A stretch of 8,276 bases of DNA from a virus (taxonomy: Duplodnaviria; Heunggongvirae; Uroviricota; Caudoviricetes). Numbering within the stretch: the first letter of the stretch is position 1; every line of letters starts with the position of its first letter. Shown in pieces: positions 1,845-8,276 of this stretch. The notes under the pieces are model-generated. The model did no database searches, was not told where the DNA came from, and saw nothing but the letters and a program-made list of their open reading frames with translations. Where the stretch lies: the IMG/VR virus record IMGVR_UViG_2513237361_000010, one strand, 5' to 3'. The position numbers and the translations under genes are program-made.

Positions 1845-2408
1845 ATGAGGCTAATCGTGGGTAAGCATCACTGGAAAATAGAAAAACAGCCTGAGTGGTA
1901 CGTGAAAGCTGTCAGAAAAACTATCGCGGCGTTGCCGGGTGGTTACGCTGAAGCGGCTGACTGGCTCGATGTAACAGAAAACGCTTTATTCAACCGCCTT
2001 CGTGCAGATGGCGATCAGATTTTCCCGCTGGGATGGGCAATGGTTTTACAGCGTGCTGGTGGCACTCACTTCATTGCTGATGCTGTGGCGCAGTCTGCAA
2101 ATGGCGTCTTTGTGTCTCTTCCTGACATCGAGGATGTGGACAACGCCGATATCAACCAACGCCTGCTGGAGGTCATTGAACAGATCGGCAGTTATTCAAA
2201 ACAGATTCGTTCAGCAATTGAAGACGGTGTAGTGGAACCGCATGAGAAGACAGCAATTAATGACGAGCTGTACCTCTCAATTTCGAAGCTGCAGGAGCAT
2301 GCAGCACTGGTCTACAAAATTTTTTGCATTTCAGAAAGTAATGACGCCCGCGAGTGTGCAGCTCCGGGCGCCGTGGCGTGTCGTGACTGTGGAGAAACTA
2401 ACGCATGA
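1845..2408 (+). CDS. YdaT/CII-like early regulatory protein (positional assignment)
   Basis: 187-aa ORF directly after the cro-like gene, the position occupied by cII or ydaT-type genes in lambdoid and rac-like prophages. Its stop overlaps the next start (ATGA at 2405-2408). Family assignment is by synteny and general resemblance only. The start could instead be GTG 1857, which has a GAGG 6 nt upstream. Confidence 0.5.
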
Positions 2409-2743
2409 ACAGTTTAACAACACACTACCGTCGCTCGCAACTGATTGCACTTCCTGTACCGGGTGGAAAAGCGAAGGTGGAGTATTGCTATGCAGTAAAT
2501 GTACCAGGTGACAGGGAAATTGTAACCCACAGCTTTGCAGAGTGGGCTGTGGGTGATTTCAACCGGCAGAAGGAGACAGTCCTTTGCGACAAGTTAACCG
2601 CTGGTTCAAAGATCACTACGGAGTGCCCGTCAGAGTCATTCGTTGGGAGCCGGAAACACAACGTGTTATCTACCTCCGCGAAGGCTATGAGCATGAATGC
2701 TTCAGTCCGCTCGAACAGTTTCGTCGTAAATTCAGGGAAATAG
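2405..2743 (+). CDS. hypothetical protein; C-terminal half doubtful (frame conflict)
   Basis: ATG at 2405 overlaps the stop of the previous gene. The first ~58 residues look protein-like. After ~2580 this frame becomes Ser-rich and low-complexity, while the overlapping frame looks like a real protein. Confidence 0.4.
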
Positions 2744-2763
2744 AGGTCGGTCATGAGCACTAA
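2584..2763 (+). CDS. unannotated small ORF (59 aa, TTG start), or the frameshifted C-terminal part of the preceding gene
   Basis: Not in the ORF track (below its length cutoff). AAGGAG at 2570-2575, then an 8-nt spacer, then TTG 2584-2586. Translation [59 protein letters not shown] is rich in W/F/Y and charged residues. Stop at 2761-2763 overlaps the start of the initiator gene. Confidence 0.35.
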
Positions 2764-3694
2764 ATTAACCGGCTATGTATGGGATGGTTGCGCTGCGTCA
2801 GGCATGAAATTATCCAGCGTGGCAATTATGGCCCGCCTGGCTGATTTCAGTAATGACGAAGGTGTGTGCTGGCCATCAATTGAAACCATTGCCCGCCAGA
2901 TTGGTGCGGGGATGAGTACCGTCAGAACGGCTATCGCACGGCTGGAAGCAGAAGGCTGGTTAACGCGTAAGGCGCGTCGCCAGGGTAACCGCAATGCGTC
3001 GAATGTTTATCAGCTTAACGTTGCGAAGCTTCAGGCTGCGGCTTTTTCTCAACTGTCAGATTCTGACCCGTCAAAATCTGACGCATCAAAATCTGACCCG
3101 TCAAAATTTGATGCGTCGAAATCTGGCAAAAAAGCGGGTTTTCACCCGTCAGAATCTGGCGGGGATCCGTCAGTAAAATCAAAACATGATCCGTCAGATA
3201 AAAAAACTTCTCGTCCGGACGCTTCGCAACCGGACACGCAGACGGCTGAACAGGAGTTTTTAACTCGCCATCCTGATGCGGTTGTATTCAGCCCTAAAAA
3301 GCGCCAGTGGGGAACGCAGGATGATTTGACCTGCGCACAGTGGCTCTGGAAGAAAATAATCGCCCTGTACGAGCAGGCTGCCGAATGTGACGGCGAGGTG
3401 GTTCGTCCCAAAGAACCGAACTGGACAGCCTGGGCAAACGAAATTCGCCTGATGTGTGTACAGGATGGGCGTACTCACAAACAAATCTGCGAGATGTACA
3501 GCCGTGTCAGCCGCGATCCGTTCTGGTGCCGTAACGTGCTCAGCCCGTCGAAGCTGCGGGAAAAATGGGATGAGCTTTCCCTGCGCTTATCGCCGTCCGT
3601 CAGCACGTACACCGAAAAACGCGAGGACCCGTACTTCAAAGCCAGTTACGACAACGTGGACTACAGCCAGATCCCGGTAGGATTCAGAGGGTGA
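2753..3694 (+). CDS. replication initiator, lambda O-like architecture (N-terminal HTH DNA-binding domain, iteron-encoded linker, C-terminal domain)
   Basis: 313 aa. ATG at 2753 with GAGG 6 nt upstream. N-terminal region resembles HTH replication-initiator domains. The central low-complexity linker (SDSDPSKSDASKSDPSKFDASKSGKK...) is encoded by DNA iterons, as in lambda O. Stop overlaps the next gene. Confidence 0.7.
   Translation: MSTKLTGYVWDGCAASGMKLSSVAIMARLADFSNDEGVCWPSIETIARQIGAGMSTVRTAIARLEAEGWLTRKARRQGNRNASNVYQLNVAKLQAAAFSQLSDSDPSKSDASKSDPSKFDASKSGKKAGFHPSESGGDPSVKSKHDPSDKKTSRPDASQPDTQTAEQEFLTRHPDAVVFSPKKRQWGTQDDLTCAQWLWKKIIALYEQAAECDGEVVRPKEPNWTAWANEIRLMCVQDGRTHKQICEMYSRVSRDPFWCRNVLSPSKLREKWDELSLRLSPSVSTYTEKREDPYFKASYDNVDYSQIPVGFRG
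3055..3200. repeat. iteron array, putative origin of replication inside the initiator gene
   Basis: 15-bp periodic direct repeats ttctgacccgtcaaa / atctgacgcatcaaa / atctgacccgtcaaa / atttgatgcgtcgaa (3061-3120), with further CCGTCAG copies at 3146, 3167 and 3191. The unit contains the dyad gtcaga / tctgac. The array is followed by an A-rich stretch (3198-3207). Confidence 0.7.
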
Positions 3695-3696
3695 TC

Positions 3697-4185
3697 ATGA
3701 GTCTGTTAAATGACGTTCAGAAATTCATTGAAGCCCATCCGGGGTGTACTTCCGGAGACATTGCGGATGCTTTTGCAGGTTACTCACGGCAGCGCGTTCT
3801 GCAGTCTGCAAGCAAGTTACGTCAGAGTGGGCGTGTGGCTCACCGTTGTGAAGGGGATACACGCAGACATTTCCCGCGCCTGACTGAGAGAGCGCAGGAG
3901 CCGGAACCACAACCAGTTCGTGAAACCAGACCTGTGCGCAATTTCTATGTCGGCACTAACGATCCCCGGGTGATTTTGTGCCTGACCCGCCAGGCTGAAG
4001 AACTGGAGTCAAGGGGCTTATACCGTCGTGCTGCAACCGTGTGGATGGCGGCATTCCGTGAAAGCCACTCCCAGCCAGAACGAAACAATTTTCTGGCGCG
4101 TCGTGAGCGGTGCTTACGGAAAAGCAGCAAGCGCGCTGCATCGGGTGAAGAGTGGTATCTGTCAGGGAATTACGTGGGGGCGTAA
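3697..4185 (+). CDS. PerC-family-like transcriptional regulator with N-terminal winged-helix-like extension
   Basis: C-terminal region AEELESRGLYRRAATVWMAAF...ERNNFLARRERCLRKS matches the PerC/Pch signature (LE..GLWRRAA..W ... RR..C). The track ORF starts at GTG 3691; ATG 3697 is preferred. Stop TAA 4183-4185 overlaps the next ATG (TAATG). Confidence 0.65.
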   Translation: MSLLNDVQKFIEAHPGCTSGDIADAFAGYSRQRVLQSASKLRQSGRVAHRCEGDTRRHFPRLTERAQEPEPQPVRETRPVRNFYVGTNDPRVILCLTRQAEELESRGLYRRAATVWMAAFRESHSQPERNNFLARRERCLRKSSKRAASGEEWYLSGNYVGA

Positions 4186-4511
4186 TGACGACGTTAACTC
4201 AATGCCAGCAGCAGGTGCTGGATATGCTGATTTCTTATCAGAAAGAGCGTGGCTTTCCGCCAACCAATCAGGAGGTGGCAACCATGCTGGGATACCGTTC
4301 GGTGAATGCAGCGGTGGAGCATCTTCGCGCACTGGAGAAAAAAGGTGTCATCACGATAAAGCGTGGCGTGGCCCGGGGTATCACTCTTCATACCGCGGTG
4401 GAGGACGACGACAGCGAGGCGGTCGGGATTATCCGCGCACTGCTTGCCGGTGAGGCAAACGCCAGGCTGCGTGCAGCCCACTGGTTACATGAGAGGGGCC
4501 TGAAAGTATGA
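4185..4511 (+). CDS. LexA-like protein: LexA N-terminal DNA-binding domain and hinge only, no S24 peptidase domain
   Basis: 108 aa. MTTLTQCQQQVLDMLISYQKERGFPPTNQEVATMLGYRSVNAAVEHLRALEKKGVITIKRGVARGITL aligns by eye with E. coli LexA residues 1-70, including recognition helix NAAxEHL. It is followed by an acidic hinge (VEDDDSE) and a VG..AGE remnant of the cleavage region, and ends about 25 residues later. GGGGG sits upstream of ATG 4185; the stop overlaps the rusA start (ATGA). Confidence 0.8.
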   Translation: MTTLTQCQQQVLDMLISYQKERGFPPTNQEVATMLGYRSVNAAVEHLRALEKKGVITIKRGVARGITLHTAVEDDDSEAVGIIRALLAGEANARLRAAHWLHERGLKV

Positions 4512-4897
4512 AGCTAATACTGCCTTTTCCGCCCAGCGTGAACACGTACTGGCGACACCCCAACAAAGGGGCGTTTGCAGGTAAGAGCCTGATAAGCGCG
4601 GCGGGGCGCAAATTCCAGAGCGCGGCGTGTGCAGCAATAGTTGAGCAGTTACGTCGTCTGCCAAAACCAACGTCGGCACCTGCTTCAGTGGAGATCGTGT
4701 TGTTTCCTCCGGATAACCGGATCCGCGATCTGGACAACTATAACAAGGCGCTGTTTGACGCCCTGACCCACGCGGGTGTGTGGGAAGACGACAGTCAGGT
4801 GAAAAGAATGCTGGTGGAGTGGGGACCGGTTATCCCGGAAGGGAAGGTCGAGATCACTATCAGTAAGTACGAGAAAACGGCGGGTGCAGCCGCCTGA
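4508..4897 (+). CDS. rusA: RusA Holliday junction resolvase
   Basis: 129 aa. Motifs LPFPPSVNTYWR and DLDNYNKALFDALTHAGVWEDDSQV match the RusA family, including the acidic catalytic region. A typical lambdoid NinR-region gene. Confidence 0.9.
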   Translation: MKLILPFPPSVNTYWRHPNKGAFAGKSLISAAGRKFQSAACAAIVEQLRRLPKPTSAPASVEIVLFPPDNRIRDLDNYNKALFDALTHAGVWEDDSQVKRMLVEWGPVIPEGKVEITISKYEKTAGAAA

Positions 4898-4916
4898 TCA
4901 AGAGGAGAAACGAAGT

Positions 4917-5159
4917 ATGAATAATCTGATGGTCATTGATGGTATTGAAGTTCGTCGTGATGCTTATGGGCGTTACAGCCTGAACGATCTGCATCGCGCA
5001 GCAGTAGCATCTGGTGCAAATGCCAGAACCAAGGAGCCAGGAAAGTTTCTTTCCAGCCAACAAACTGTTGAACTTGTTCATGAATTGACCAACACCCAGA
5101 ATTTGGGTGTTGACCCGGTGAGTGTGATTCATGGGGGAAATGAACGGGGAACGCCGTAA
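4917..5159 (+). CDS. KilA-N domain protein, apparently truncated
   Basis: ATG at 4917 with GAGGAG 9 nt upstream (the track ORF starts at GTG 4884). The pattern IDGIEVRRDAYGRYSLNDLHRAA...PGKFL...GGNERGT resembles the N-terminal half of KilA-N / antirepressor N-domains. The ORF stops right after the GG..GT motif and no frame continues the domain. Confidence 0.55.
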   Translation: MNNLMVIDGIEVRRDAYGRYSLNDLHRAAVASGANARTKEPGKFLSSQQTVELVHELTNTQNLGVDPVSVIHGGNERGTP

Positions 5160-5472
5160 ATTCAGTATCCTTGTGCGTATCCTCGCTGACGGGCGCACCA
5201 CAGACATCCCGCTGGGGCGTTTTCTGCGGGAATTTACCTGTGACCGTCCTGACCTGTTTAAACGCAGCCCCGTAAACCGGCATGCGGTACTGAAAGAAAT
5301 GGCCGGAGACCCGGAATTACAGAAATGGCGGGAGAAATATCTGGATATTTACCCGCAGGACCCTGTTCCGGTCAGCCGGGCGGCACCGGTGGCGCGGGAA
5401 TGGCGGGAAATTCCCCGCACGGAGCCTGACCCGGAAATCACCCCGGATAACAGTTACCGCAATTATCTGTAA
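5131..5472 (+). CDS. hypothetical protein
   Basis: 113-aa ORF overlapping the 3' end of the KilA-N ORF by 29 nt in another frame. Alternative ATG at 5140. Higher GC than upstream genes. No recognisable motif. Confidence 0.45.
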   Translation: MGEMNGERRKFSILVRILADGRTTDIPLGRFLREFTCDRPDLFKRSPVNRHAVLKEMAGDPELQKWREKYLDIYPQDPVPVSRAAPVAREWREIPRTEPDPEITPDNSYRNYL

Positions 5473-5500
5473 TTAAAAAACGACACCCGAAAAATTAAAT

Positions 5501-5526
5501 GTGCGTATTCGCGCAGGGATACGCAC
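5501..5526. promoter_or_regulatory. perfect 8-bp inverted repeat (gtgcgtat-N10-atacgcac), candidate operator or RNA stem-loop
   Basis: Lies in the only sizeable intergenic gap of the rightward operon (5473-5607). No U tract follows, so it is unlikely to be an intrinsic terminator. Confidence 0.4.
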
Positions 5527-5545
5527 GTCTTCAGGAGACGCAGAT

Positions 5546-5611
5546 ATGCCTTATCAGTTAATGCAACCGGCACGGAATGCAGTCATCTGTCACAGGGAGG
5601 AAAGCAAATGA
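5546..5611 (+). CDS. possible 21-codon upstream ORF / leader peptide ([21 protein letters not shown])
   Basis: AGGAG (5533-5537) 8 nt upstream of ATG 5546. Its stop TGA 5609-5611 overlaps the ATG of the next gene (ATGA). Could be a chance ORF. Confidence 0.25.
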
Positions 5612-5928
5612 AAACCCCCTTACCGCCCGTCTTACGCGCAGCCCTTTACCGTCGCGCTGTCGCCTGTGCCTGGCTGACCGTGTGCGAACGTCAGCACCGC
5701 TACCCGCATCTCACCCTTGAATCACTGGAGGCGGCCATCGCCGCTGAGCTGGAAGGCTTTTATCTGCGCCAGCACGGTGAGGAAAAAGGGCGTCAGATAG
5801 CCTGTGCCCTGCTGGAAGATTTAATGGAATCCGGCCCCCTGAAGGCCGCGCCGTCGCTGTCCTTTCTCGGGCTGGTTGTGATGGATGAACTCTGTGCCCG
5901 TCACATAAAAGCGCCGGTACTGCACTGA
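5608..5928 (+). CDS. hypothetical protein immediately upstream of the primase
   Basis: 106 aa. GGGAGG 7 nt upstream of ATG 5608. Stop TGA 5926-5928 overlaps the primase RBS (AGGAGA). No recognisable motif. Confidence 0.6.
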
Positions 5929-5942
5929 AGGAGAACAACACC

Positions 5943-8276
5943 ATGAAAATGAACGTAACCGCCACCGTCAGCCATGCACTCGGCCACTGGCCGCGTATTC
6001 TCCCGGCGCTGGGGATTCAGGTGCTGAAAAACCGTCATCAGCCCTGTCCGGTCTGTGGCGGGAGTGACCGCTTCCGTTTTGATGACAGGGAGGGGCGCGG
6101 CACCTGGTACTGCAATCAGTGTGGTGCCGGTGACGGCCTGAAACTGGTTGAAAAGGTGTTTGGTGTTTCCCCGTCCGACGCGGCCACAAAGGTGGCTGCC
6201 GTGACCGGCAGTCTGCCCCCGGCTGACCCGGCAGTGACGGCCGCCGCCGTTGCTGAAACAGAAGCCGCCCGGAAGAACGCCGCCGCACTGGCACAAACCC
6301 TGATGGCGAAAACCCGTCCCGGAACCGGTAACGCCTACCTGACCCGCAAGGGCTTTCCCGGCCGGGAATGCCGGATGCTGACCGGCACACACAGAGCCGG
6401 TGGCGTGAGCTGGCGCGCCGGTGACCTTGTGGTGCCACTGTATGACGACAGCGGCGAACTGGTTAACCTTCAGTTAATCAGTGCTGACGGCCGTAAGCGC
6501 ACCCTGAAAGGCGGACAGGTCAGGGGCACCTGTCACATCCTTGAAGGACAGAATCAGGCCGGAAAACGTCTGTGGATAGCGGAGGGATACGCGACCGCAC
6601 TTACCGTACATCACCTGACCGGTGAAACGGTGATGGTGGCGCTTTCTTCCGTGAACCTCCTTTCTCTGGCCAGCCTTGCCCGGCAGAAGCATCCGGCCTG
6701 TCAGATTGTCCTTGCCGCAGACCGTGACCTCAGCGGTGACGGCCAGAAAAAAGCCGCCGCAGCCGCAGATGCGTGTGAAGGTGTTGTTGCCCTGCCGCCG
6801 GTCTTCGGTGACTGGAATGATGCCTTCACGCAGTACGGCGGGGAAGCCACCCGTAAGGCCATTTATGATGCCATCCGGCCACCGGCTGAAAGCCCGTTCG
6901 ACACCATGAGCGAAGCGGAGTTTTCCGCCATGAGTACCAGCGAAAAGGCCATGCGTATCTATGAGCATTACGGCGAGGCGCTCGCGGTCGATGCCAACGG
7001 CCAGCTTCTGTCCCGCTATGAAAATGGTGTCTGGAAGGTGCTGCCGCCACAGGACTTTGCCCGGGATGTGGCCGGGCTGTTTCAGCGGCTGCGCGCGCCG
7101 TTCTCCTCCGGGAAGGTGGCCTCCGTGGTGGACACCCTGAAGCTGATTATTCCGCAGCAGGAAGCCCCCTCCCGCTGCCTGATTGGCTTTCGTAACGGCG
7201 TGCTCGACACGCAGAACGGCACGTTCCACCCGCACAGTCCGTCACACTGGATGCGTACCCTGTGCGATGTGGATTTCACCCCGCCGGTGGAAGGGGAAAC
7301 GCTGGAAACCCACGCCCCCGCGTTCTGGCGCTGGCTTGACCGTGCCGCCGGTGGCCGTGCGGAAAAACGCGACGTGATTCTGGCCGCACTGTTTATGGTG
7401 CTGGCAAACCGCTATGACTGGCAGCTCTTTCTGGAGGTGACCGGTCCCGGCGGCAGCGGCAAAAGTATCATGGCCGAAATAGCCACCCTGCTGGCCGGGG
7501 AGGATAACGCCACGTCGGCCACCATCGAGACGCTGGAATCCCCGCGTGAACGTGCCGCGTTAACTGGCTTCTCACTGATACGCCTGCCGGACCAGGAAAA
7601 ATGGAGCGGCGACGGAGCCGGACTCAAGGCCATCACCGGCGGCGATGCGGTGTCCGTTGACCCGAAATACCGGGATGCGTACTCCACGCACATCCCGGCG
7701 GTGATTCTGGCCGTGAACAATAACCCGATGCGCTTCACCGACCGCAGCGGCGGCGTGTCACGCCGGCGGGTGATTATTCACTTCCCGGAACAGATAGCCC
7801 CGCAGGAGCGCGACCCGCAGCTTAAGGACAAAATCACCCGCGAGCTGGCGGTCATCGTGCGTCACCTGATGCAGAAGTTCAGCGACCCGATGCTCGCCCG
7901 GTCACTGCTTCAGTCCCAGCAGAACTCAGACGAGGCGCTGAACATCAAACGGGATGCCGACCCGACGTTTGATTTTATCGGCTATCTGGAAACCCTGCCG
8001 CAGACCAGCGGCATGTATATGGGGAACGCCAGTATCATCCCGCGTAATTACCGTAAATACCTCTATCACGCCTATCTGGCCTACATGGAGGCAAACGGCT
8101 ACCGGAATGTACTCAGTCTGAAAATGTTCGGGCTGGGGCTGCCGGTGATGCTGAAGGAATACGGGCTGAATTACGAGAAGCGCCATACCAAACAGGGGAT
8201 ACAGACCAACCTGACGCTGAAAGAGGAAAGCTACGGCGACTGGCTGCCAAAATGTGACGACCCTACAACAGCCTGA
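5943..8276 (+). CDS. P4 alpha-type primase-helicase (zinc-ribbon, TOPRIM primase domain, P-loop NTPase/helicase domain)
   Basis: 777 aa. N-terminal zinc ribbon CPVCGG...YCNQCG. TOPRIM-like region with the acidic motifs LWIAEGYATAL and VLAADRDLSGDGQ. Walker A GPGGSGKS, with a downstream VILAVNNNP motif typical of SF3-type helicase domains. Strong RBS AGGAGA 9 nt upstream. Ends exactly at the window end. Confidence 0.9.
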   Translation: MKMNVTATVSHALGHWPRILPALGIQVLKNRHQPCPVCGGSDRFRFDDREGRGTWYCNQCGAGDGLKLVEKVFGVSPSDAATKVAAVTGSLPPADPAVTAAAVAETEAARKNAAALAQTLMAKTRPGTGNAYLTRKGFPGRECRMLTGTHRAGGVSWRAGDLVVPLYDDSGELVNLQLISADGRKRTLKGGQVRGTCHILEGQNQAGKRLWIAEGYATALTVHHLTGETVMVALSSVNLLSLASLARQKHPACQIVLAADRDLSGDGQKKAAAAADACEGVVALPPVFGDWNDAFTQYGGEATRKAIYDAIRPPAESPFDTMSEAEFSAMSTSEKAMRIYEHYGEALAVDANGQLLSRYENGVWKVLPPQDFARDVAGLFQRLRAPFSSGKVASVVDTLKLIIPQQEAPSRCLIGFRNGVLDTQNGTFHPHSPSHWMRTLCDVDFTPPVEGETLETHAPAFWRWLDRAAGGRAEKRDVILAALFMVLANRYDWQLFLEVTGPGGSGKSIMAEIATLLAGEDNATSATIETLESPRERAALTGFSLIRLPDQEKWSGDGAGLKAITGGDAVSVDPKYRDAYSTHIPAVILAVNNNPMRFTDRSGGVSRRRVIIHFPEQIAPQERDPQLKDKITRELAVIVRHLMQKFSDPMLARSLLQSQQNSDEALNIKRDADPTFDFIGYLETLPQTSGMYMGNASIIPRNYRKYLYHAYLAYMEANGYRNVLSLKMFGLGLPVMLKEYGLNYEKRHTKQGIQTNLTLKEESYGDWLPKCDDPTTA

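Follow-up and report, generated by a model that had tools for sequence, protein, structure and literature searches.

A probable out-of-frame gene pair at the ymfM locus of an e14/SfII-type lambdoid prophage: ymfM and a nested DUF4222 gene

We have analysed a stretch of 8,276 nucleotides (nt) of viral DNA (IMG/VR record IMGVR_UViG_2513237361_000010), which is referred to in full as the window. It comes from an e14/SfII-type lambdoid prophage of Escherichia coli, whose early-right region it represents, and positions 2405-2763 are its ymfM locus. It is very probable that this locus holds two real genes in out-of-frame overlap, namely ymfM, formed by an N-terminal module (N-module) and an open tail, and an independently initiated gene of the DUF4222 family nested in its second half. 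Selection is seen on both open reading frames (ORFs): the ratio of non-synonymous to synonymous differences per site (pN/pS) is 0.19 in the DUF4222 frame and 0.34-0.46 in the ymfM frame of the N half, and across the overlap the ymfM frame avoids stop codons. The DUF4222 ORF is already in the databases; new are the demonstration that the two ORFs overlap and are both real, the pattern of selection that maintains the open frame together with its stop, and the consequences for the annotation of K-12 and for the question of YmfM and the division inhibitor SfiC.

Two coding frames at the ymfM locus

The initial annotation of this DNA had described a frame conflict between an ORF at 2405-2743 (112 amino acids, aa) and a smaller TTG-initiated ORF at 2584-2763 (59 aa), and it had offered two genes, a recent frameshift mutation or a sequencing indel as the explanation. 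Both ORFs are present in different frames, the AAGGAG element stands exactly 8 nt before the TTG, as had been claimed, and the TAA of the small ORF (2761-2763) does overlap the start of the gene whose ATG is at 2753. The overlap between ymfM and the nested gene amounts to 160 nt, out of frame, and the nested gene runs 20 nt beyond ymfM. The explanation by two genes, one of them missed as short and TTG-initiated, proved to be the correct one, given the DUF4222 match and the selection on both frames that are described below.

Relatives were retrieved by similarity to the DUF4222 protein only and came from Escherichia, Shigella, Klebsiella, Citrobacter, Enterobacter, Atlantibacter, Buttiauxella, Kosakonia, Raoultella, Pseudescherichia, Leclercia, Silvania, Pantoea and Mixta. 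A scan of viral contigs first gave copies of ~98% identity only, and scans seeded from diverged variants were used instead. Variation within E. coli and Shigella was taken from single-nucleotide polymorphisms (SNPs) in 53 alleles with 35 variable sites.

The nested ORF passes the gathering score of PF13973 (DUF4222) with 67.3 bits against a required 27 (E = 8.6e-19), the match covering residues 2-53 of 59. The low pN/pS of its frame goes together with a pS of 0.70, which is near saturation, and the SNPs of the overlap, when read in this frame, are 14 synonymous against 1 non-synonymous. In 202 unique regions (194 nested and 8 un-nested) the gene starts with ATG in 142 cases, TTG in 53 and GTG in 7; TTG is the start in E. 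coli and Shigella and ATG that in other genera, and a purine-rich element resembling a Shine-Dalgarno (SD) sequence lies 4-10 nt 5' of the start in nearly all relatives. The AlphaFold2 (AF2) model reaches a predicted local distance difference test score (pLDDT) of 83, and the protein is confidently predicted to be a small SH3/Tudor-like beta-barrel. An Rfam search of the window gave no match, and the local RNA fold around the SD and the TTG is no better than that of shuffled sequence (z = -0.7).

The longer ORF is orthologous to K-12 YmfM (b1148, 'cell division inhibitor YmfM'), being 97% identical to it (109/112 residues, with the 3 differences all in the tail) and flanked by the same ymfL and O-like gene. 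Its N half is constrained as protein in the ymfM frame, where the pN/pS given above compares with values of 0.9-1.5 in the two other frames (three N-module groups), and where the SNPs of E. coli and Shigella are 17 synonymous versus 7 non-synonymous. No match to the ymfM ORF was found in Pfam or NCBIfam. AF2 predicts for the N-module a beta-beta-beta-alpha fold of modest confidence (pLDDT 55-75), the mean pLDDT of the whole YmfM model being 52.7. A paralogy of the N-module and DUF4222, prompted by their similar predicted topologies, was rejected at an hhalign probability of only 0.2%. Short proteins consisting of the N-module only were also discarded as counter-examples, most of them being sporadic frameshifts, insertion sequence (IS) junctions or contig ends.

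The two halves of the locus behave differently even between close relatives. Six differences separate K-12 from the window, of which three are silent ymfM changes upstream and three fall in the overlap, where they are silent for DUF4222 and non-synonymous for ymfM. The switch of coding frame at ~2584 goes far beyond chance and recurs in relatives that belong to about a dozen genera. Natural controls are provided by loci in which the two units stand apart. In Entomohabitans a stand-alone N-module gene of 78 aa lies directly 5' of the replication gene, without DUF4222, and in the locus L121 a KilA-N/ANT gene is placed between an N-module gene of 73 aa and a DUF4222 gene of 61 aa. Furthermore, un-nested DUF4222 genes have 2-5 stops in the corresponding frame in 7/10 unique sequences (5/6 clades), and some of these stops fall at the very V-N and V-I junctions that are kept free of stops in nested genes. 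Therefore, the genes are independent units and the avoidance of stops is specific to nesting.

The open tail of ymfM and its junction with the replication gene

In the overlap the pN/pS of the ymfM frame is 1.64, to be compared with 1.87 in the unused third frame and 0.19 in the DUF4222 frame, and 14 of the 15 SNPs are non-synonymous when read as ymfM, with 1 synonymous. AF2 gives residues 68-112 a pLDDT of 30-38, and the tail is predicted to be disordered. The impression of the initial annotation that the C-terminal half of the long ORF looks non-coding is thus right for the residues, which are unconstrained, and wrong for the frame, which is kept free of stops and ends at a conserved stop codon. 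We did not find true dual coding, in which both overlapping segments are constrained as protein, as the ymfM tail keeps its openness and its stop only. It had also been reasoned that a single gene should appear in homologues as one uninterrupted protein of the 2405 frame with a conserved C-terminus; a single ORF in this frame does persist, but its C-terminus is unconserved and the alternative-frame peptide is the one strongly conserved.

The openness itself is constant. From the upstream ATG to the stop at DUF4222 codon ~53 the ymfM frame is open in 33/33 relatives and, in the later set, in 194/194 unique 380-nt regions; the +2 frame and two antisense frames across the overlap are nearly always closed in the 33 relatives. 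When the DUF4222 ORFs were recoded synonymously with the codon usage of the neighbouring genes, the ymfM frame remained open in only 5%. A stricter null, the permutation of synonymous codons within the gene, gives a P(open) of 0.30-0.36, and under it the joint chance probability of openness is 3.5e-10 for 19 representatives of <85% nucleotide identity. At the dangerous V/L/I junctions, where the codon is followed by A or G, synonyms ending in A or G were found in 0/162 cases versus 44/152 at harmless junctions (Fisher p = 3e-16), and lineages switch there between T- and C-ending codons, both of which are observed. The ymfM frame is actively kept free of stops, not passively open. Since it is kept stop-free and its stop codon is conserved, the ymfM tail is evidently translated.

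An antisense ORF of 90 aa (window 2488-2760, minus strand), without a Pfam hit, is open in 29/33 relatives as well. Its openness is trivial and expected by chance because the frame is in register with that of DUF4222, so that only TTA, CTA or TCA codons close it.

The end point of the frame is also maintained. The ymfM stop is formed where a rare ATA, TTA, GTA or CTA codon of DUF4222 is followed by A or G (33/34 relatives, and later 194/194), and the stop is kept although the DUF4222 residues at this junction vary (I/L/V and then E/K/G/T/D). In the window the stop runs into GAGG (2743-2746), the ATG of the replication gene comes 9 nt after the stop, and a spacing of 12 nt (160) or 9 nt (32) is found in 192/194 unique relatives, across at least five unrelated types of replication gene. 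The geometry of a coupled junction, in which an upstream stop is conserved at the SD and start of the downstream gene, is therefore found between ymfM and the replication gene. Selection acts only on the openness and the end point of the frame of the ymfM tail, not on the encoded peptide, and such a signature would mean that translation is needed for its own sake, most plausibly for the delivery of ribosomes to the replication gene.

We propose that the early-right operon may be translated as a relay of coupled ORFs, from ymfL through an ATGA overlap to ymfM, and from ymfM to the stop, SD and ATG of the replication gene. By holding the ymfM frame open across DUF4222, ribosomes loaded upstream would be delivered to the ribosome-binding site (RBS) of the replication gene, and DUF4222 would be made by independent internal initiation from its own SD and start codon. 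The geometry of the junction suggests translational coupling as the purpose of the open tail, with a probability that we judge to be about even.

Several points weigh against this interpretation of the locus. The support for translation is indirect, coming from signatures of selection, and the un-nested control set is small (10 sequences from 6 clades) and includes one clade in which the frame is open. As regards coupling, the replication gene shares the frame of ymfM, so a stop before its ATG would be needed anyway, and the same signatures would follow if the tail had a sequence-independent role such as that of a disordered region. Moreover, phage mEp460 lacks the conserved stop, its ymfM-like frame continuing into a 383-aa ORF annotated as Rha.

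The sequence-independent role deserves to be considered on its own, as the tail could be a functional disordered C-terminal region whose presence and length matter and whose sequence does not (in instability, partner binding or division inhibition). Such a role would be compatible with two genes and would compete with the coupling rationale only; we regard it as conceivable but rather unlikely. The ~53 codons kept open speak in its favour, as do the predicted disorder, the composition, which is always rich in Ser/Thr/Ala/Gly, and the nearly constant length; however, length and composition are constant because the conserved DUF4222 sequence underlies them. Amino-acid constraint is nil, as in the unused frame, and N-modules without DUF4222 (L119 from Entomohabitans, and L121) have short unrelated tails of ~15-20 residues.

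A different possibility is that programmed -1 frameshifting joins the N-module to DUF4222 in a product of ~117 aa, which we consider highly improbable. The DUF4222 frame is indeed -1 relative to ymfM, with an SD-like element just upstream of the junction, T_TTA_AAG is in phase at +21 from the DUF4222 start in 8/33 loci, and rare fused proteins exist in the databases (P0150, P0178, P0184, P0085, P0212). Nevertheless, when all loci were scanned, neither the window nor most relatives had a slippery heptamer in phase and no conserved one was found, and a stop in the DUF4222 frame lies 0-27 nt 5' of the start (in several loci 0-6 nt before the ATG). In all relatives DUF4222 is provided with an SD and a start (ATG, TTG or GTG) of its own, and it exists as a stand-alone gene, the mechanism would not need the zero frame to be open, and the fused or longer DUF4222 proteins are isolated indel or assembly variants with differing junctions. 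These results agree with the initial annotation, which had reported no X_XXY_YYZ heptamer, had noted that a +1 slip at a CUU-U motif would soon terminate (it would read GCG ACA AGT TAA, a stop within four codons) and had held programmed frameshifting to be unsupported. The loci with T_TTA_AAG include L026, L027, L031 and L034-L037, where a slip at the motif would take ribosomes to the DUF4222 frame at Phe8-Lys9. The window lacks it (GGTTCAAAG), and the motif is probably no more than a side effect of the conservation of the F-K residues.

The proposals of a single gene correspond to the two current styles of annotation. According to that of the Prokaryotic Genome Annotation Pipeline (PGAP), only DUF4222 would be real, the 112-aa ORF being spurious and 2405-2583 non-coding. 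The 175-nt gap left by PGAP and the lack of a Pfam or NCBIfam hit for ymfM fit this view, but we find it very hard to sustain in front of the purifying selection on the N half in the ymfM frame, seen between genera and within E. coli, the ATGA overlap with ymfL, the stand-alone N-module genes and the avoidance of stops in the ymfM frame. The converse, that only ymfM is real and the internal TTG ORF arose by chance, follows the K-12/EcoCyc style; K-12 RefSeq gives ymfM alone, with a functional name, and TTG is a weak start codon. The Pfam match, the low pN/pS of the DUF4222 frame, the ATG start in most genera, the confident predicted fold and the homology to the regulator RgdR make it scarcely credible. 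Finally, a change of coding frame in the middle of an ORF is the usual signature of an indel, which would here have hit a former single gene by recent frameshift mutation, pseudogene formation or sequencing error. The same two-frame arrangement occurs in 2648/5426 complete E. coli genomes, therefore excluding a sequencing indel, and in all 194 unique relatives, which represent about 12 genera, and no consistent single-frame ancestor was found among 1.84 billion representatives; this explanation can practically be dismissed.

Annotation, neighbouring genes and side observations

If ymfM and DUF4222 are taken as two overlapping genes, current annotations lose one of them systematically. A gene caller that does not allow long overlaps cannot keep both. 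In the PGAP style the short ORF alone is listed, under the name 'DUF4222 domain-containing protein' (WP_001250269.1), which leaves the 175 nt after ymfL empty and ymfM dropped; K-12 RefSeq and many phage submissions annotate the 112-aa ORF only and drop DUF4222. In PHROGs the 112-aa ORF, a 63-aa form with the N-terminal part only and the 59-aa ORF belong to three different families, all of unknown function. The cryptic prophage e14 of K-12 carries the identical 59-aa ORF, unannotated (L005 2502-2681; NC_000913 1204001-1204180), so that the best-annotated genome, that of E. coli K-12, contains an unannotated conserved RgdR homologue inside a gene with a curated functional name.

That name derives from work in which ymfM was identified as SfiC, the SOS-inducible division inhibitor, on the basis of 'the open reading frame' cloned in pBAD24 and of ymfM deletions (Ansari et al., bioRxiv 10.1101/2020.11.19.390815). 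The clone from an earlier screen spanned the 3' end of ymfL, ymfM and the 5' end of ymfN (PMC3614548), and later work used whole-gene deletions of ymfM (PMC11410268). The 339-bp ymfM ORF contains the nested SD, the TTG and 53/59 DUF4222 codons, that is, the whole Pfam domain, and our search of the literature on ymfM found no frame-specific mutant, tag or western blot. As clones of the whole ORF affect both genes and ymfM deletions remove both, the published assignment of the division inhibitor cannot separate the two products. The SfiC question, now 35 years old, was taken as settled by constructs that are blind to which product acts. The SfiC activity (block of the Z ring) could tentatively be ascribed to the nested 59-aa DUF4222 protein, or to both products jointly; in favour of DUF4222 it can be cited that the nested gene is more strongly conserved and its product better folded than ymfM.

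The features of the locus and its neighbours are collected in Table 1. The gene order in the window is S24/cI-type repressor, cro-like gene, ymfL, ymfM with the nested ORF, and O-like replication gene. The TGA of ymfL (2406-2408) shares bases with the ATG of ymfM as ATGA, which would be the upstream link of the coupled chain, and the ACGCATGAA junction between ymfL and ymfM is kept in most loci. The replication gene, annotated in related phages as replication protein O or primosomal protein, contributes its first 11 nt as the last DUF4222 codons. The locus is present in about half of the complete E. coli genomes; in most of the 2648 matching ones the stretch 2300-2850 is at least 95% identical, and this stretch is also found in phages SfII, SfIV and others.

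Table 1. Features of the ymfM locus and adjoining genes in the window.
Feature	Position	Strand	Support or remark
S24/cI-type repressor	848-1522	minus	
ymfL, CII-like regulator gene	1845-2408	+	Pfam Phage_CP76 E = 3.3e-13; NCBIfam phage_reg_YmfL E = 3e-50
ymfM ORF, 112 aa, ATG start	2405-2743	+	PHROG phrog_1170 E = 1e-69
ymfM N-module, true protein-coding	2405-2583	+	pN/pS in ymfM frame
Shine-Dalgarno AAGGAG of nested gene	2570-2575	+	8 nt before TTG
Overprinted ymfM tail, codons ~60-112 (~53 codons)	2584-2740	+	open frame, unconstrained residues
Nested DUF4222/RgdR-family gene, 59 aa, TTG start, -1 frame relative to ymfM	2584-2763	+	Pfam PF13973
Conserved ymfM stop TAG	2741-2743	+	rare ATA codon 53 of DUF4222 and G of codon 54
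Putative coupling junction	2742-2755	+	SD-like AGAGG 2742-2746, 6-nt spacer, replication ATG 2753-2755 in ymfM frame
O-like replication initiator gene (HTH_36)	2753-3694	+	Pfam HTH_36 E = 4e-11

The position of the DUF4222 stop varies from +177 to +258, into the replication gene, for a total length of 59-86 aa. Codons 54 to the end (2744-2763 in the window, and in relatives) are overprinted on the 5' end of the replication gene, and their length is set by the downstream replication module; the C-terminus reads, for example, ...HEH* before one type of replication gene and ...EPVNAIPADSDKP* before MSLLMPSRPIVI-type genes. In the search of representatives a protein of 559 aa (P0240) showed seven tandem repeats (…VIDSSDYVGK…ADGRVQYLREGYSSKSVSK…) with a weak match to the DUF4222 core, and it could be made up of repeated copies of a small, related barrel.

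The N-module gene of Entomohabitans teleogrylli (L119 2501-2737) retains the first ~10 residues of the tail (LCSQLTTSGK), and its stop overlaps the start of the replication gene as the DUF4222 stop does in the window; it looks like a deletion derivative without the DUF4222 core. In phage mEp460 (L118, JQ182728) the 'regulatory protein Rha' (1301-2452) begins with a ymfM-like N-module and continues into the Rha domain, and an unannotated GTG-initiated DUF4222 ORF of 59 aa lies inside it at 1450-1629. The DNA of this Rha locus recurs in many Stx2 phages, and either the start of the Rha ORF is mis-called or the fusion is real.

On the opposite strand, an abundant cis-antisense small RNA of K-12 e14, ECS003 (116 nt, with a Northern band of ~70 nt), has been described opposite the ymfM RBS (PMC3175480). 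It corresponds to the minus strand at ~2350-2450 in the window, at the ymfL/ymfM junction, and its position recalls that of the lambda OOP RNA, which is antisense to the cII 3' end. A promoter/terminator consensus scan of 2150-2850 for an OOP-like antisense RNA gave no promoter-like site and one weak terminator-like site at chance level.

Downstream of the replication gene the ORFs are tightly packed stop to start along the operon: a PerC-family ORF (3691-4185) overlaps an ORF of 119 aa with a LexA_DNA_bind domain (4152-4511) by 34 nt in a different frame, and a RusA-like ORF (4508-4897) overlaps the stop of the latter by 4 nt. The region 4100-8276 is contiguous in no complete E. coli genome. 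A KilA-N ORF (4884-5159) is truncated at a junction at ~5150, and positions ~5152-8276 match at 99.6% a separate satellite or P4-like module, which contains a hypothetical ORF, DUF5375 (5608-5928) and a P4-type primase-helicase from 5943 off the end of the window. The junction reflects either a mosaic prophage or an assembly chimera.

Comparison with known systems

The closest system is that of e14 YmfM itself, since the same gene stands there in the same order as in the window (cI-like repressor, cro-like gene, ymfL, ymfM and replication gene). It was published as one protein from a 339-bp ORF, within which we describe a second, better-conserved gene.

For the nested gene, the one characterised member of the DUF4222 family is RgdR. 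This protein (ECs1581, of OI-51/Sp7 in enterohaemorrhagic E. coli (EHEC) O157:H7) is a prophage regulator of 99 aa; it activates LEE1 and type III secretion (T3SS), represses motility and binds DNA weakly and non-specifically (PMC3378721; PMC10877973). An RGD tripeptide before the conserved core is important for its activation of T3SS (PMC3378721). By BLASTP, RgdR and the window protein share 41% identity over 49 aa (E = 3e-11), RgdR scoring 82 bits to PF13973, and in both cases the gene directly precedes a replication gene (a primase for RgdR) and overlaps its start. RgdR differs in having N- and C-terminal extensions and the RGD motif, which is lacking in the window protein and marks RgdR activity rather than membership of the family, and in lying in a P4-like element, unlike the window gene.

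As for the overlap, the classic nested pair is Rz/Rz1 of lambda, in which Rz1 lies wholly within Rz in another frame, both overlapping parts are constrained and functional, and the arrangement is widely conserved. As in Rz/Rz1, a small phage gene is found here in a different frame within a larger one, both being real and conserved across many phages; in contrast, the DUF4222 gene extends 20 nt past ymfM, and the overlapped part of ymfM is unconstrained except for its openness. The lysis gene of MS2, read in another frame, reaches from the last part of the coat gene into the first part of the replicase gene, and it needs coat-translating ribosomes to terminate and reinitiate. In the ymfM locus, similarly, a short gene in a different frame straddles the junction of two genes in what may be a translationally coupled context, although the DUF4222 gene, unlike the MS2 lysis gene, has a strong SD and a start codon of its own.

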